64,000 nucleotides of DNA from Escherichia coli (lineage in GTDB: Bacteria > Pseudomonadota > Gammaproteobacteria > Enterobacterales > Enterobacteriaceae), in NCBI RefSeq assembly GCF_003334785.1, contig NZ_QOWV01000004.1; one strand, given 5' to 3'. The notes below the pieces were generated by a model that ran no database searches, was not told the DNA's origin, and saw only the letters and a list, made by a program, of their open reading frames with translations. Position 1 is the first letter of the stretch, and each line of letters starts with the position of its first letter. A program made the position numbers and the translations under genes. This document shows, one piece after another, positions 4,243 to 32,603 of this stretch.

Positions 4243-6624
4243 ATGTTAAAAAAAACGTTACTGGCCTACACCATTGGTTTTGCCTTTTCTCCCCCAGCCA
4301 ATGCAGATGGTATAGAGATTGCCGCTGTTGATTTTGATCGGGAAACATTAAAATCACTAGGTGTAGATCCTAATATATCGCATTATTTTTCCCGTTCAGC
4401 CCGTTTTTTGCCAGGTGAATATTCACTGATAGTATCAGTAAATGGCGAAAAAAAAGGCAACATTGCTACGCGCTTTGATGAAAATGGCGACATTTGTCTT
4501 GATCAGGCATTTCTGCAACAAGCCGGTTTAAAAATTCCTTCTGAAGAAAAAAATGGCTGTTACGACTATATATTGTCCTACCCGGGTACCACAATCACAC
4601 CATTACCTAACCAGGAAGCGTTAGATATTATCGTTTCACCACAGGCGATCATTCCCATAGGGTTGGATCTCACAAACGCAGCAACTGGTGGAACAGCTGC
4701 GCTGCTAAACTACTCTCTGATGAGCAGCCGTGCAGAATTTTCTAATGGGAGTTCGGACTACTCCCAGGCTGCACTTGAAGGCGGGATTAATATTAATGAC
4801 TGGATGTTACGCAGCCATCAGTTCCTTACACAAACAAATGGCACATTCAGTAACCAGAACTCGTCAACCTACCTTCAACGTACCTTTACAGATCTTAAAA
4901 CACTCATGCGAGCAGGTGAAGTTAACCTCAATAATAGCGTGTTGGAAGGAGCCAGTATTTACGGTATCGAAATCGCACCGGACAACGCATTGCAAACCAG
5001 CGGCAATGGTGTGCAAGTTACTGGTATAGCCAACACCTCTCAGGCTCGTGTCGAGATTCGTCAACAAGGAGTTTTAATTCATTCCATTCTGGTTCCTGCG
5101 GGCGCATTCACTATCCCTGATGTACCTGTTCGCAATGGTAATAGTGATCTTAATGTCACCGTTGTCGAAACAGACGGTAGTTCGCACAACTATATTGTTC
5201 CCTCCACCCTGTTTAATCAGCATGTAGAAAGCTTCCAGGGTTATCGCTTCGCGATAGGGCGGGTAGACGATGACTATGACGAATCACCTTGGGTAATTAG
5301 TGCATCGAGCGGATGGAATCTGACACGCTGGAGTGCAATGAACGGCGGCGTTATCGTAGCAGAAAATTATCAGGCGGCATCAATCCGGTCGAGTCTGGTT
5401 CCCCTGCCCGATTTAACAGTGAGCAGCCAAATTAGTACATCGCAGGATACGAAAGACTCACTGCAAGGACAGAAATATCGTCTTGACGCGAACTACAATC
5501 TCCCATTTTCACTTGGGCTAACAACCAGCCTCACTCGATCTGATCGCCATTATCGCGAACTGTCTGAAGCGATTGATGATGATTATACCGATCCGACTAA
5601 AAGCACTTATGCGCTTGGTTTAAACTGGTCTAACTCCATTCTGGGTGGTTTCAACATCAGTGGCTATAAAACATATAGTTACGACGGTGACAATGACTCA
5701 AGCAACCTTAATATTAACTGGAACAAAGCGTTCAAACACGCCACGGTTTCCGTCAACTGGCAGCATCAACTTAGTGCTTCAGAAAATAATGAAGACGATG
5801 GTGATCTGTTCTACGTCAACATCAGTATTCCATTTGGCAGATCAAACACCGCCACACTGTATACTCGCCATGACGATCATAAAACCCACTATGGTACTGG
5901 TGTCATGGGAGTCGTCTCAGATGAGATGTCCTACTATGTGAATGCTGAACGAGATCACGACGAACGTGAAACGAGCTTGAACGGCAGTATCAGTTCCAAT
6001 CTCCATTACACCCAAGTCAGCCTTGCCGCAGGAGCAAGCGGCAGTGATAGCCGTACTTACAACGGTACGATGTCAGGTGGTATTGCCGTACATGATCAGG
6101 GAGTGACCTTTTCACCGTGGACTATCAATGACACTTTCGCCATCGCAAAAATGGATAACAATATTGCAGGTGTCAGAATTACATCTCAGGCAGGCCCAGT
6201 ATGGACAGATTTTCGGGGTAATGCCGTCATTCCATCAATCCAGCCGTGGCGAACATCAGGAGTTGAGATCGATACCGCCAGCTTGCCAAAAAATGTCGAT
6301 ATCGGTAACGGCACAAAAATGATCAAACAAGGCCGTGGTGCAGTAGGGAAAGTCGGATTCAGTGCGATAACACAACGCCGTGCATTACTCAATATCACAC
6401 TTTCCGACGGCAAAAAACTGCCCAGAGGCGTTGCGATTGAAGATAGTGAAGGCAACTATCTGACAACATCAGTGGATGACGGTGTTGTATTCCTCAATAA
6501 CATCAAACCGGACATGGTGCTAGATATAAAAGATGAGCAGCAATCATGCCGTATTCACCTTACATTCCCAGAAGATGCACCAAAAGATGTGTTCTATGAG
6601 ACAGCAACAGGAGAGTGCCAATGA
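4243..6624 (+). CDS. yhcD: Outer-membrane fimbrial usher, about 793 aa
   Basis: Large ORF; start trimmed from TTG at 4225 to ATG at 4243 preceded by GGAG; usher-like size and composition. Confidence 0.85.
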   Translation: MLKKTLLAYTIGFAFSPPANADGIEIAAVDFDRETLKSLGVDPNISHYFSRSARFLPGEYSLIVSVNGEKKGNIATRFDENGDICLDQAFLQQAGLKIPSEEKNGCYDYILSYPGTTITPLPNQEALDIIVSPQAIIPIGLDLTNAATGGTAALLNYSLMSSRAEFSNGSSDYSQAALEGGININDWMLRSHQFLTQTNGTFSNQNSSTYLQRTFTDLKTLMRAGEVNLNNSVLEGASIYGIEIAPDNALQTSGNGVQVTGIANTSQARVEIRQQGVLIHSILVPAGAFTIPDVPVRNGNSDLNVTVVETDGSSHNYIVPSTLFNQHVESFQGYRFAIGRVDDDYDESPWVISASSGWNLTRWSAMNGGVIVAENYQAASIRSSLVPLPDLTVSSQISTSQDTKDSLQGQKYRLDANYNLPFSLGLTTSLTRSDRHYRELSEAIDDDYTDPTKSTYALGLNWSNSILGGFNISGYKTYSYDGDNDSSNLNINWNKAFKHATVSVNWQHQLSASENNEDDGDLFYVNISIPFGRSNTATLYTRHDDHKTHYGTGVMGVVSDEMSYYVNAERDHDERETSLNGSISSNLHYTQVSLAAGASGSDSRTYNGTMSGGIAVHDQGVTFSPWTINDTFAIAKMDNNIAGVRITSQAGPVWTDFRGNAVIPSIQPWRTSGVEIDTASLPKNVDIGNGTKMIKQGRGAVGKVGFSAITQRRALLNITLSDGKKLPRGVAIEDSEGNYLTTSVDDGVVFLNNIKPDMVLDIKDEQQSCRIHLTFPEDAPKDVFYETATGECQ

Positions 6625-7166
6625 AACGGATAATAACAGGATGCCTGCTGCTGAACTTCGCCATGGCCGCTCAGGCAGAGTGTAATATCTCCAGTAGCAT
6701 ACAAAATATCGACTATGGCAAACGAAGTGCTGCCATGCGCCAAGTTGACCGGGGTAAAACAACACAATTAGCAGACAGAACAATCACGCTGGTAATGCAA
6801 TGCGATCAGGACGCTCATATTCGTGTTCAGTTGAATACCGCTAATATTTCCAACAACGGATTTGGATTTGGCCCGAATGGTTCATTAAATCTGATCGCCA
6901 GCGATGCATTTTCAGGTAGTAACAATCTCGACCTGGCGTTAGCCAGTGGCAAAAATGACAATCCGGGCAGCACAGGAACAGCATCAATTAGTACTTCCCC
7001 CAATAATTGGCTGGTGTTTATGCAAAATGGTCAAGAAGTGGTAATTGATAGCGGTAAAAGCGTTAGCCTCACACTGACAATGGCTCCAGCTTTTAAGGAT
7101 GAAGGGGAACTAACCGACATGACAGATATTACAGGCAATCTGACGGTCCTGGTGGAGGCAAAATGA
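6621..7166 (+). CDS. yhcE: Fimbrial-like protein (DUF1120 type), uninterrupted here
   Basis: ATG at 6621 overlapping yhcD stop (ATGA); signal peptide MKRIITGCLLLNFAMAAQA; AGGAG SD. Confidence 0.75.
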   Translation: MKRIITGCLLLNFAMAAQAECNISSSIQNIDYGKRSAAMRQVDRGKTTQLADRTITLVMQCDQDAHIRVQLNTANISNNGFGFGPNGSLNLIASDAFSGSNNLDLALASGKNDNPGSTGTASISTSPNNWLVFMQNGQEVVIDSGKSVSLTLTMAPAFKDEGELTDMTDITGNLTVLVEAK

Positions 7167-26065: not shown

Positions 26066-26091
26066 GCCCCCGGTTCGGGGGCTTTTTTTTG
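26066..26091 (+). terminator. Intrinsic terminator after yhcN (GCCCCCGGTTCGGGGGC + T8)
   Basis: Perfect GC hairpin followed by 8 T read directly. Confidence 0.8.
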
Positions 26092-26093
26092 CG

Positions 26094-26366
26094 CTAATGA
26101 CGAACATTAAAACGCAAATGCCCTTCCAGCTCTTCCTCTGCCTCATCAAACAGCAATATTAACGCGCCAAAACGGCGACGCGTTTTCTCTCCCAGATGAA
26201 CAAATTCAATCTCAAGTGGTAGCGGCAGGACATCGTTCATTAACACATCCCATAGTGAGTCGAGATCGCGTACCTTATCTTTCGCCAGACCAAAGGTTTG
26301 GCTAAAGTCACGATAAAAATCCTCCTGACTCTCAATCTCATCAAAATCAAAGGTATAAATATTCAT
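26094..26366 (-). CDS. yhcO: Barstar-like (ribonuclease inhibitor family) protein, 90 aa
   Basis: 90-aa acidic ORF; family assignment from memory of YhcO; no adjacent nuclease gene. Confidence 0.8.
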
Positions 26367-26457
26367 CTGTTGCCACCGTCACGTTTCGCGGCGAGTTCTG
26401 CCGTGCATCGCTAAGTATAGCCATGAAAAAACCGACGCTTTTGGCGTCGGTTTTGAC

Positions 26458-28425
26458 TTAACTATCGGTCAACGCATGTTGATACTTATGGAGCATCCCC
26501 GCCAGCCGATTTACCGGTTCCGTCACCTGCGGTGGCGCTTGCCAGATGCGTAGCTTTTCCTGGTAGATTTCCAGTTCTTCCAGCAACTGGCCAAAGTACC
26601 GACGACGTTTATCATCGCTACGGGCAGATATCACATGGTCTGCTGTGCGGCGCATTTGTCGGTGAAACGCCGATAAATCCTCGTTAACCGGGATCGGTGC
26701 ATCACGCAGGCGCTGGTGCGCGATAATCATCGTCAGCGCCAGGCGAAATTTCGGCAAATCCCCTGGGAACTTATTCATCAGCAAAAACAGCTGCTGATAA
26801 AGTGCCGGGAGGTGGTTCTCTTTACGACGTGCCACATTGGTAGTCATCGCGGAAACAGCGGCAGAAACAAACTGATTAAGCAGTACACGTCCGGTCCTGT
26901 CGCGCGATTTATCCCGCACCAGCAAAATAACGGTGAACGCGAGCACACAGCCGACGATTTGCCCTAATGCGCTGTCGAGAAACTGACTGAAATGGAAAGT
27001 CATCGGGTTATCCAGCACGATAATATTTATGGTGCTGGCCAGTGCCCCCATCGAGCCCAGTCGCCGTTTCTGTACTTCTATACCGAGGAAGAATCCCAGC
27101 ACTGCCAGGCTAATGCACAGCAGCAACATGCTCTGTTGGGTATTAGGGATAATCACCAAAAAGTAGAGCAGCCCTAACGGCAGCGCGGCCAGCGTCCCGT
27201 AGATAAAGTCGATCGCCACCATGCGTGGATTCGGCAAACGCATTGCCAGTGACGTCACTACCGCAATCATCACCATTGCACCACTGCCGGAAGTCCAGCC
27301 CGTCCACAGCCAGAAAAGCGTGCCCAGAATGCAGGAAAGTGTGGTTCGCCAGAAGTTAACCATTGCATGATGACGTTCGGCTGACTCTACTTTTACTTCC
27401 GGTTCGCCTTGCAGGATCTCTTCTTCGGTGGCGTTGATTTTTGTGTTACTGATAACGCCGCGCTTGAGAAGCTGATAACGCGTTGCCGCCGCGACCCAGC
27501 TATAAATGGTGACAGGCGTTTCCCGTTCCCCGGTCCAGGCGATAACTCTCCGCAGGCGTTTGAGCTGCTTGTGGACGTCCTGCGCGGTTTCTACCGGCGT
27601 GTCAAAAAATTCGCGGAAAGTATCAGTGATCAATTCCGGGCGCGTATTCTGAATAAGATAAGTTTCGCAGGATTGGGTAATCAGCGTCAGCGATAGCGTA
27701 TTGATCGCTTTTAAACGTCGATTGGCCCGCGCCCAGCGGGAAGATTCCATATTCAGGTTGCTGCGCATGCCTTGTAGCGCCGTGGTGCGTCGCACCAGGT
27801 CGCCCCAGGCTTTATCGACAACTTCACCATCGCCATGCTTGATACAGAGTTGCATTAATTGATATTGCGCGACCAGCAAACTTTCCAGCTCTCGATCCAC
27901 TTCTTGTTTGATCGATCGCGGAGAAAAGAGCAAATCCGCCATAATCGCACACACAATACCGATAACGATCTCGCTACAACGTTCGACGGCAAACTGCGGC
28001 GTAAGCAATGGTTCCGGCTGAATGGTGATCACAATGATCAGCGCGGTATAACCGGCCAGCCCCCACGCATACGAGTTTTCTATTCGTACCAGCGAGGATA
28101 TCCAGGTACAAAAACCGGCCCAGATACAGCACACCAGAATCATCAATAATGGTGCGCGGATCATCGCAATGATGATCACCAGTCCGGCAATACAGCCAAT
28201 AAATGTGCCGATGATGCGCAAAAAGCCACGATAGCGAATAGCGCCAGAATACGGTTCACCTCCCGCAGCAAAGGCCGGACCGGCGGCAACAATCGCCGCT
28301 GTCAGTACCGCCCAGCGTGGCGTTTCCAGCTGGAAGTGAAAGCCAACAAACAGCGCCAGTACAATGGCGGTCGCCAGTTTTACCGCAAAGCGAATATGTT
28401 GGTTAGCAATGGAGAAAATACCCAT
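26458..28425 (-). CDS. aaeB: Aromatic carboxylic acid efflux pump subunit AaeB, 655 aa
   Basis: Large polytopic membrane ORF downstream of aaeA. Confidence 0.9.
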
Positions 28426-32280: not shown

Positions 32281-32309
32281 TTAGTTACTGCAGTAGAGGA
32301 TTTTTTACG

Positions 32310-32535
32310 GCTGCCGGATGCGGCGTGAACGCCCTATCCAGCCTACGGTTATGTTCCGGTTTGTAGGCCTGATAAGACGCACAGCGTCGCATCAGGCAAC
32401 GGCTGTCGGATGCGGCGTAAACGCCTTATCCGACCTACGGTTATGTTCCGTTTGTAGGCCTGATAAGACGCACAGCGTCGCATCAGGCAACGGCTGCCGG
32501 ATGCGGCGTGAACGCCCTATCCGACCTACGGTTAT
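32310..32535. repeat. BIME: cluster of about five REP palindromic units
   Basis: Alternating GCCGGATGCGGCGTGAACGCCTTATCCGGCCTAC-type and TGTAGGCCTGATAAGACGC...GCATCAGGCA-type units read directly. Confidence 0.85.
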
Positions 32536-32603
32536 GTTCTGGCTCGTTGGCCTTTGGCAACGATTATCCTATGAGATTGGGGCAATTACGCGCCCTCGTC
32601 AAA

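Follow-up and report, generated by a model that had tools for sequence, protein, structure and literature searches.

The orphan barstar-family gene yhcO of Escherichia coli, a probable survivor of an ancestral barnase–barstar operon

The gene yhcO of Escherichia coli encodes a small acidic protein of the barstar family, for which we found no assigned function in the literature searched. It lies at positions 26094–26366, on the minus strand, of a 64-kb stretch of E. coli DNA (64,000 nt, hereafter called the window). The results of our analysis indicate that yhcO is very probably the surviving inhibitor of an ancestral barnase–barstar operon, because synteny, phylogeny and recent deletions in related genera all support this origin. 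Its present role may be, tentatively, to protect stationary-phase cells against barnase-type RNases that come from outside. The gene, its family and its structure (solved since 2005) are already known, and in the literature searched there is no earlier account of the in situ origin next to aaeB, of the frozen shifts at the binding interface or of the enterobacterial barnase.

A profile of YhcO relatives was scanned over one genome per species (GTDB set) and returned 80 loci, nearly all of them in Enterobacterales. The genetic linkage to a barnase-type RNase that is missing from yhcO in the window is found for its homologues in 55/80 loci, where a barnase open reading frame (ORF) lies on the strand of the YhcO homologue and ends 1–20 nt upstream of it. 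The paired genera include Serratia, Yersinia (Y. pestis among them), Ewingella, Edwardsiella and Xenorhabdus. Their barnase ORFs are 52–63% identical to the barnase of Bacillus amyloliquefaciens (54% over a shorter stretch for the truncated copy of Arsenophonus), and the copy of Y. pestis matches the Pfam family Ribonuclease (PF00545, E=1.7e-15). Residues K27, D54, N58 and R59 of barnase are retained in 55/55 copies and E73, R83, R87, H102 and Y103 in 54/55, the single exception being the truncated copy just mentioned, which comes from an aphid endosymbiont. Hydrophobic, signal-like segments are present at the N-terminus of the copies inspected; judged by sequence, these proteins look like functional exported barnases. 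As a separate observation, the barnases at L024 (3534–3995), L048 (3511–3984) and the 53 other loci are closer to their Bacillus counterpart than are the inhibitors (27% for YhcO). Across phyla the RNase is thus far better kept than its inhibitor, and either an old horizontal transfer of the pair or very unequal constraints may lie behind this.

Where aaeB is in view (Serratia, Yersinia and Ewingella), the barnase–barstar pair occupies the same aaeB-linked slot in which E. coli carries yhcO. The gene order is aaeA-aaeB-barnase-barstar in Serratia and aaeB-ssadh-barnase-barstar in Yersinia, Ewingella and Chimaeribacter californicus, ssadh being the gene for succinate-semialdehyde dehydrogenase. 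Loci of Enterobacter, Citrobacter amalonaticus, Lelliottia, Kosakonia, Pseudenterobacter and Erwinia mallotivora read aaeB-ssadh-yhcO, those of Escherichia, Salmonella and Klebsiella read aaeB-yhcO, and the yhcO loci of Enterobacteriaceae have no adjacent RNase gene. The aaeB gene (26458–28425, minus strand, from the ORF list and annotation) is the upstream syntenic anchor across genera, with AaeB homologues showing 60–65% identity in Serratia and Yersinia. YhcO shares 55–57% identity with the Serratia inhibitor and the neighbouring AaeB about 63%, a similar degree of divergence. In a neighbor-joining tree, the resolution of which is limited by its being built on 90 residues only, the old orphans group together as a single long-stemmed clade, whose sister is the aae-linked paired clade.

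Two other orphans, from Chimaeribacter arupi and Hafnia psychrotolerans, nest inside the paired clade. The locus of C. arupi reads aaeB-ssadh-barstar and encodes a barstar protein identical to that of its paired sister species C. californicus (L067 vs. L069), a comparison which indicates that barnase was probably removed by a very recent and clean deletion. H. psychrotolerans instead retains a barnase pseudogene (L078, 3837–3992) directly upstream of an intact barstar homologue; its signal and pro-region (residues 25–46) runs on in frame into the final 30 residues, the catalytic core being deleted, and it is recognized by tblastn with Ewingella barnase (E=1e-6). The RNase was thus lost at least three separate times, with the inhibitor retained each time, an asymmetry to be expected from the lethality of barnase in cells that lack barstar (PMC8625414). 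The Arsenophonus endosymbiont of Aphis craccivora (L063, 3499–3882) has a barnase truncated so that E73 to H102 are missing, followed by an intact barstar; this may represent a fourth independent inactivation, in the decaying genome of a symbiont. In the lineage of E. coli the loss is older than the divergence of Escherichia, Salmonella and Klebsiella, and tblastn with barnases detected no barnase remnant in the 91-nt aaeB–yhcO spacer of E. coli or in any old-orphan locus. On the basis of the synteny table and of tblastn, this spacer (26367–26457, minus strand) is the proposed site of the barnase deletion. The suggestion of the original prediction that yhcO could be a relic of a toxin system is therefore supported by its barnase-linked homologues, by the aaeB-linked slot and by the two recent losses of barnase.

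The same prediction had noted that no barnase-like or other toxin gene lies near yhcO, and this holds: the K-12 annotation equivalent to the window contains no ribonuclease-toxin gene, and when the whole window was searched by tblastn with the barnases of Bacillus, Yersinia and Serratia, the best hit had only E=0.56. The search for RNase toxins in the rest of the genome, which the prediction had proposed, was made with DNA probes. The Y. pestis barnase–barstar operon found no match by blastn in all complete E. coli genomes, and an Rhs–barnase tip with its immunity gene, taken from an IncC plasmid, matched only the Rhs core of other IncC plasmids and not the tip. These two probes, of limited sensitivity, thus met no barnase-type sequence in 5426 E. 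coli genomes.

The identity of yhcO itself is well established. Its ORF runs from ATG to TAG in the ORF list and in the sequence, and encodes 90 residues with an isoelectric point of 4.48 (21 Asp plus Glu vs. 10 Lys plus Arg). The product matches Pfam Barstar (PF01337) over residues 1–81 of 90 with E=2.4e-9; direct phmmer searches of YhcO against barstar chains are weak (E=0.06–1). The protein in PDB entry 2CX6 ("hypothetical protein yhcO") is 100% identical to YhcO of the window and entry 5F4C is the Salmonella orthologue; both carry the database title "ribonuclease inhibitor Barstar." RefSeq labels the gene "yhcO: barstar family protein," between yhcN and aaeB, and NCBIfam lacks models both for YhcO and for barnase and barstar of enterobacteria. 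A chance ORF is ruled out, since yhcO is annotated and the surrounding 1.4 kb is found in 5426/5426 complete E. coli genomes, always in the order argR-yhcN-yhcO-aaeB. The description of yhcO as a 90-residue acidic member of the barstar family, made originally from the letters of the window, is fully consistent with these data.

A structural comparison had also been proposed as a check, and it returned the barstar fold, whose absence would have refuted the prediction. A single-sequence AlphaFold2 model reached a predicted local distance difference test score (pLDDT) of 68.6, so the model based on an alignment of 50 sequences was used instead, which has pLDDT 96.1 and the element order E-H-H-E-H-H-E. 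Foldseek against the PDB gave template modeling (TM) scores of 0.99 to 2CX6 and 0.98 to 5F4C, followed by more than 25 chains of B. amyloliquefaciens barstar (TM 0.77–0.82, root-mean-square deviation about 2 Å, probability 1.0), below which the ranking falls sharply to unrelated proteins. YhcO thus has the alpha/beta barstar fold, which comprises three parallel strands and four helices, as seen in the crystal structure of the identical sequence (2CX6), in the AlphaFold2 model and in the Foldseek comparison.

The residues by which barstar plugs the active site of barnase can be followed in the alignment. YhcO residues D36, W39, D40, E75 and E79 align with barstar D35, W38, D39, E76 and E80, so that helix alpha2 (D36-S-L-W39-D40) and helix alpha4 (E75 and E79) form the predicted RNase-binding surface. 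All five residues are invariant in 20/20 orphans; among paired copies D36, W39, D40 and E79 are present in 32/32 and E75 in 29/32. YhcO thus carries the DxxxD motif on helix alpha2, which is the stated signature of Imm-Barstar (PMC3482391), together with the equivalents of barstar W38, E76 and E80. The acidic residues of barstar are reportedly destabilizing and kept only for binding, as Schreiber, Buckle and Fersht are said to have found in 1994. Such hot-spot residues, costly for stability yet retained in YhcO, therefore argue for a continuing partner with a basic site. The peripheral residues that contact the barnase pocket in Bacillus barstar (Y29, G31, T42, G43 and W44) are absent from YhcO: at the positions of barstar Tyr29, Tyr30, Gly31, Thr42, Gly43 and Trp44 it has D30, K31, V32, M43, D45 and V46. 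The G and T of the pocket are kept in paired enterobacterial copies and lost in the orphan clade, whereas the aromatic residue equivalent to Tyr29 is already gone from the paired copies of Serratia and Yersinia, and hence its loss is not specific to orphans.

Selection on the orphan clade was estimated from pairwise dN/dS (Nei–Gojobori method, NG86; pairs with 0.1<dS<2). The median is 0.129 for orphans vs. 0.121 for paired copies, and values within Escherichia are 0.03–0.07. The ORF is intact across at least nine genera, except in one contig of Citrobacter koseri that is either frameshifted or misassembled. Thirty-four of the 90 positions are identical in both the orphan and the paired clades, and the C-terminal half of YhcO carries a 20-residue stretch that is invariant in the orphan clade. 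Compared with the aae-linked paired clade, the orphans show five fixed differences, F31K, G32V, A37S, I47L and E74D, frozen in 20/20 sequences; three more have become relaxed in the orphan clade, namely D13, T43 and position 44, where one residue is inserted. Of these eight, seven map to the segments equivalent to those by which barstar contacts barnase (29–47, loop-helix-loop, and 73–80, helix 4; hypergeometric P=7.5e-4). These interface shifts fit a change of specificity or partner and fit equally a compensation of stability following the loss of the RNase.

The expression of yhcO follows a pattern of its own. An extended –10 element recognized by sigma-S has, in its textbook form, a C at –13 and a CTATACTTAA-like box. 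The sequence CTATACTTA (26412–26420, minus strand), with C at –13, is a probable yhcO promoter of this kind, as suggested by its uniqueness, its conservation and the RpoS data. The window contains it once (0.14 expected), between the terminator of aaeB and the yhcO start codon, and it does not vary among Escherichia, Salmonella and three Klebsiella species, while the remaining spacer, of 91 to about 170 nt, cannot be aligned. In strain EDL933 yhcO is among the 100 most RpoS-dependent genes of stationary phase, with a wild-type to rpoS ratio of 214 (PMC2907692). The gene thus combines two features of the RpoS regulon, a CTATACTTAA-like –10 box with C at –13 and published RpoS-dependent expression. 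It is also induced by a rapid acid shift (PMC2270276) and activated by LldR in a study which explicitly gives its function as unknown (PMC10272880). Two sequences resembling the LldR box, belonging to the yhcO peak of genomic SELEX (systematic evolution of ligands by exponential enrichment) in that study, lie at 26215–26231 and 26280–26296 with 8/14 matches each; they fall inside the yhcO coding sequence and not upstream of it.

Upstream of the promoter box, the intrinsic terminator of aaeXAB (26426–26454, minus strand), a hairpin followed by a U-tract, separates yhcO transcriptionally from aaeB. Its RNA fold has –16.7 kcal/mol (z = –4.9, 0/200 shuffles as stable), and it is kept in Escherichia, Salmonella, K. 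pneumoniae and K. oxytoca. A CTATACT box is present after aaeB and upstream of barnase in 12/12 Serratia loci in which aaeB directly precedes barnase, and in Hafnia a CTATACTTAA box (L078, at 3721) lies after aaeB and upstream of the barnase pseudogene. These boxes hint that the ancestral operon was already driven by sigma-S; spacers between aaeB and barnase align poorly across genera, so that homology of the Serratia and Hafnia boxes with that of E. coli is only suggestive. The CTATACT matches of Yersinia were not counted as promoters, for they lie inside the ssadh coding sequence, and the same motif occurs inside ssadh of an orphan Enterobacter locus.

Toxins of the barnase type circulate among the bacteria that carry the orphan gene. 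A tblastn search of PLSDB with the barnase domain recovered an Rhs protein whose C-terminus has the barnase motifs YREYDVN, RGSERVV and TSDHYKTF, encoded by plasmids from Enterobacter hormaechei, Citrobacter freundii and Klebsiella quasipneumoniae. The E. hormaechei plasmid that was inspected, pN069_1 (L084, 2116–6698), is a conjugative IncC element in which this barnase-tipped Rhs is followed by a "barstar family protein" of 160 residues. The backbone of pN069_1 is of a multidrug type, and a string of small hypothetical genes, which may be orphan immunity cassettes, comes after the Rhs and barstar-family genes. The Rhs effectors of Salmonella pathogenicity island 6 (SPI-6) likewise include "Ribonuclease/Microbial RNase" tips with Barstar immunity (PMC10469887). 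Rhs barnase tips on plasmids and in SPI-6 therefore indicate that members of the orphan clade deliver barnase-type toxins to one another. The other suggestion of the original prediction, a protection against RNase toxins delivered by competitors, is plausible in this light. When the Rhs–barnase domain was used to search proteins, it gave 17 matches, mostly metagenomic, and did not recover the source protein itself, so that it says little on distribution in E. coli.

We propose the following scenario for the origin and maintenance of yhcO. An ancestral chromosomal operon, aaeXAB-(ssadh)-barnase-barstar, would have encoded a Sec-exported guanyl RNase of the barnase type and its cytoplasmic inhibitor. 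The RNase gene would have been deleted in the common ancestor of the group comprising Escherichia, Salmonella, Citrobacter, Klebsiella, Enterobacter and Kosakonia, and only the inhibitor could have persisted alone, because barnase is lethal without barstar. Purifying selection would since have kept the orphan, with the conserved sigma-S promoter driving its transcription in stationary phase and acid stress. Helix alpha2 is predicted to insert its acidic face (D36, W39 and D40), along with E75 and E79 from helix alpha4, into the basic active site of RNases of the barnase or N1/T1 type, where this plug would mimic the phosphates of RNA and block catalysis 1:1. The present use of the protein would then be a pre-emptive immunity against barnase-type RNases that enter the cytoplasm, for example the "microbial RNase" effectors of Rhs or type VI secretion systems (T6SS). 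From analogy with barstar we infer that YhcO may still inhibit an RNase, and of what kind; to its action as an active-site-plugging inhibitor that protects stationary-phase cells against incoming barnase-type RNases we would give an even chance at best.

Several observations weigh against such an immunity. The fixed changes of the orphan clade concentrate in the very segment that contacts barnase. Gly31 of barstar lines the pocket for His102 of barnase, and G32 is the corresponding position in YhcO; the change G32V may thus have reduced affinity for classical barnases. The immunity protein linked to the plasmid-borne Rhs has no significant BLAST similarity to YhcO, and this negligible similarity means that cross-protection is not implied. 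Moreover, E. coli cells that express Bacillus barnase survive only with added barstar (PMC8625414, PMC10769378), and since the cloned enzyme kills the cells, chromosomal yhcO must be insufficient in ordinary, mostly exponential-phase culture; this failure of the native gene to protect could reflect either the restriction of its expression by sigma-S or a lost affinity. Finally, the two DNA probes mentioned above, with their limited sensitivity, found no barnase-type gene in the 5426 E. coli genomes.

Part of this evidence would suit the main rival explanation, which we consider somewhat unlikely, namely that the inhibitor was retargeted after the loss of barnase and now acts in stationary phase as a modulator under sigma-S control instead of providing barnase immunity. 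Its partner could be an endogenous protein with a basic nucleic-acid-binding site, for instance a toxin of the RelE/YoeB type (BECR fold) or another RNase, though our analysis identified no candidate. The long stem branch of the orphan clade is in keeping with such an exaptation, as are the five type-II shifts plus the insertion, frozen in 20/20 orphans and concentrated on the binding face with the probability given above. So, too, are a purifying selection that is as strong as in paired copies even with no barnase present, the membership of yhcO in the RpoS, acid and lactate regulons, and the lack of protection by the native gene against Bacillus barnase. The hot-spot residues for plugging an RNase active site are untouched, however, and part of the divergence predates the loss, given that the Y29-equivalent aromatic is absent from paired Serratia and Yersinia copies; besides, compensation of stability explains the shifts equally well. 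The idea that YhcO, induced by sigma-S, has been re-specialized to regulate or inhibit an endogenous RNase-like protein during stationary phase or acid stress, with a BECR-fold toxin of the RelE/YoeB type or another basic-site nuclease as a possible target, strikes us as improbable; its marks would be seen in the frozen K31, V32 and S37 and in the loop insertion around an unchanged acidic plug.

The remaining explanations fare much worse. That a cognate nuclease is encoded in trans, elsewhere in the E. coli genome, is most improbable: direct inspection covered the 64-kb window only, which leaves room for the idea, and a 68-residue PF00545 fragment labeled E. coli does exist on a contig of 266 nt, but this contig may be contamination of the sort that places yhcO itself in assemblies of Corynebacterium and Hydrogenophaga, and the two blastn probes met no barnase-type sequence in 5426 complete genomes. 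No PF00545 protein is known from E. coli K-12. Nor can yhcO be credibly regarded as a nonfunctional relic drifting toward loss, even if it has neither a cognate RNase nor a known phenotype and its function is called unknown in the literature. The dN/dS of 0.03–0.13 effectively refutes a decaying relic, and the presence of the gene region in 5426/5426 E. coli genomes, the ORF kept intact across at least nine genera bar the one C. koseri contig, the 34/90 positions common to both clades and the conserved promoter box point the same way. A horizontally acquired orphan immunity gene directed at the toxins of competitors, in the manner of defense islands or orphan cdiI, is just as implausible, even though conjugative plasmids of Enterobacteriaceae do carry Rhs toxins together with immunity genes of the barstar family. 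It was rejected on synteny and on the tree, which makes yhcO sister to the syntenic paired copies: yhcO is a core gene in the fixed housekeeping context mdh-argR-yhcN-yhcO-aaeBAX, with no mobile-element signature nearby, the divergence of YhcO from Serratia (55–57%) tracks that of AaeB (about 63%), and similarity to the plasmid immunity protein is negligible.

The immediate surroundings of yhcO agree with the original description of the gene as standing alone between the yhcN terminator and aaeB, as confirmed by the terminator scan and the annotation. The coding sequence (26094–26366, minus strand), documented by the ORF list, the PF01337 match, the identity with 2CX6, the AlphaFold2 and Foldseek results and the conservation table, starts 91 nt downstream of aaeB. 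A likely Shine–Dalgarno sequence GGTGG (26373–26377, minus strand), its function suggested by the sequence, lies 6 nt 5' of the ATG, and the motif ACGGTGGCAA of this region is kept within Escherichia. At its other end yhcO is convergent with yhcN, only 3 nt separating its stop codon from the T-run of the yhcN intrinsic terminator (26066–26090, plus strand), which the terminator scan and the sequence resolve into a GC hairpin (26066–26082) followed by T8. An extra ORF of 87–96 codons lies between yhcO and yhcN in Salmonella, Enterobacter, Lelliottia, Klebsiella and others (loci L009–L025, about 4330–4610, minus strand) and is absent from Escherichia; that of Lelliottia matches the YhcN family (DUF1471; NCBIfam stress_YhcN, E=1e-42).

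Some entries among the relatives of yhcO appear to be artifacts. Mini-contigs assigned to Corynebacterium lipophiloflavum (L016, a scaffold of 241 nt) and Hydrogenophaga intermedia (L021, a contig of 422 nt) carry yhcO of the E. coli-identical or Klebsiella type and are almost certainly assembly contamination. Three metagenomic proteins of 137 residues (P0029, P0031 and P0032), with first 80 residues that are 99–100% YhcO and an additional LytTR annotation (PF04397), are probably frameshifted or chimeric gene calls. The window as a whole is 99.9% identical to the corresponding region of MG1655, apart from one missing IS5; the element that splits yhcE in MG1655 is absent at about 6988–6991, and the DNA thus comes from a very close but not identical strain of E. 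coli. In the tldD–yhdP spacer (32307–32553) a unit of 91 nt is repeated in tandem (2.7 copies, 91% matches); it is GC-rich and palindromic, resembling repetitive extragenic palindromes or bacterial interspersed mosaic elements (REP/BIME), and the window has one unit fewer than MG1655 (an offset change of 92 nt).

Viewing yhcO as the inhibitor half of a lost operon turns a gene of unassigned function into a concrete experimental question, all the more so as an operon of the ancestral type is still intact in Yersinia pestis, Serratia and others. The locus offers a clean natural example of the asymmetry expected in the decay of toxin–immunity pairs. A practical question is the effect of yhcO on barnase-based selection in stationary-phase E. 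coli hosts. If re-specialization were true, YhcO would document the domestication of a toxin-immunity protein within core stress physiology.

Comparison with known systems shows that our analysis adds a testable hypothesis for a conserved gene and not a new kind of system. Bacillus amyloliquefaciens barstar (1BRS, 1BTA; PF01337) has the same fold as YhcO and is likewise an acidic cytoplasmic protein of about 90 residues, with the motif L-D-x-L-W-D (D35, W38 and D39 of barstar) and the glutamates of helix 4 (E76/E80) in common. The two differ in that identity is 27% by sequence alignment and 18–24% by structure alignment, that yhcO has no adjacent barnase and is expressed under sigma-S control, and that for YhcO the role of RNase inhibitor is deduced from this likeness. 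Closer still are the barnase–barstar operons of Enterobacterales, whose inhibitors are 48–57% identical to YhcO and, where aaeB is in view, are its orthologues in the aaeB-linked slot; the C-terminal half RRRFGA(L/I)(I/V)LLF(D/E) is nearly identical in paired inhibitors and YhcO. These operons differ in having an intact, signal-bearing barnase directly upstream of the inhibitor, and their inhibitors read FG-NLDALWD-VTG where the orphan clade has KV-DLDSLWD plus an insertion of one residue.

The Imm-Barstar proteins of polymorphic toxin systems (Rhs/T6SS "Tox-Barnase"), whose specific association is with nuclease toxins of the barnase type (Zhang et al. 2012, PMC3482391), share with YhcO the Pfam family and the DxxxD signature. 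They are accessory, toxin-linked, polymorphic and often borne on plasmids or islands, whereas YhcO is core, vertically inherited and unlinked to a toxin; the IncC example has 160 residues and reads NLNAMDE where YhcO has DLDSLWD. Orphan cdiI arrays and acquired clusters of interbacterial defense resemble yhcO in comprising an immunity-type gene without its toxin, with possible protection against non-self. Yet acquired islands are variable or mobile and patchy in distribution, whereas yhcO is present in 5426/5426 genomes in the same context, with synteny conserved across genera. Such orphans are acquired horizontally or left behind when toxin tips are displaced in variable islands, whereas yhcO would have arisen by deletion of the toxin gene in situ, to become thereafter a fixed part of the core genome.

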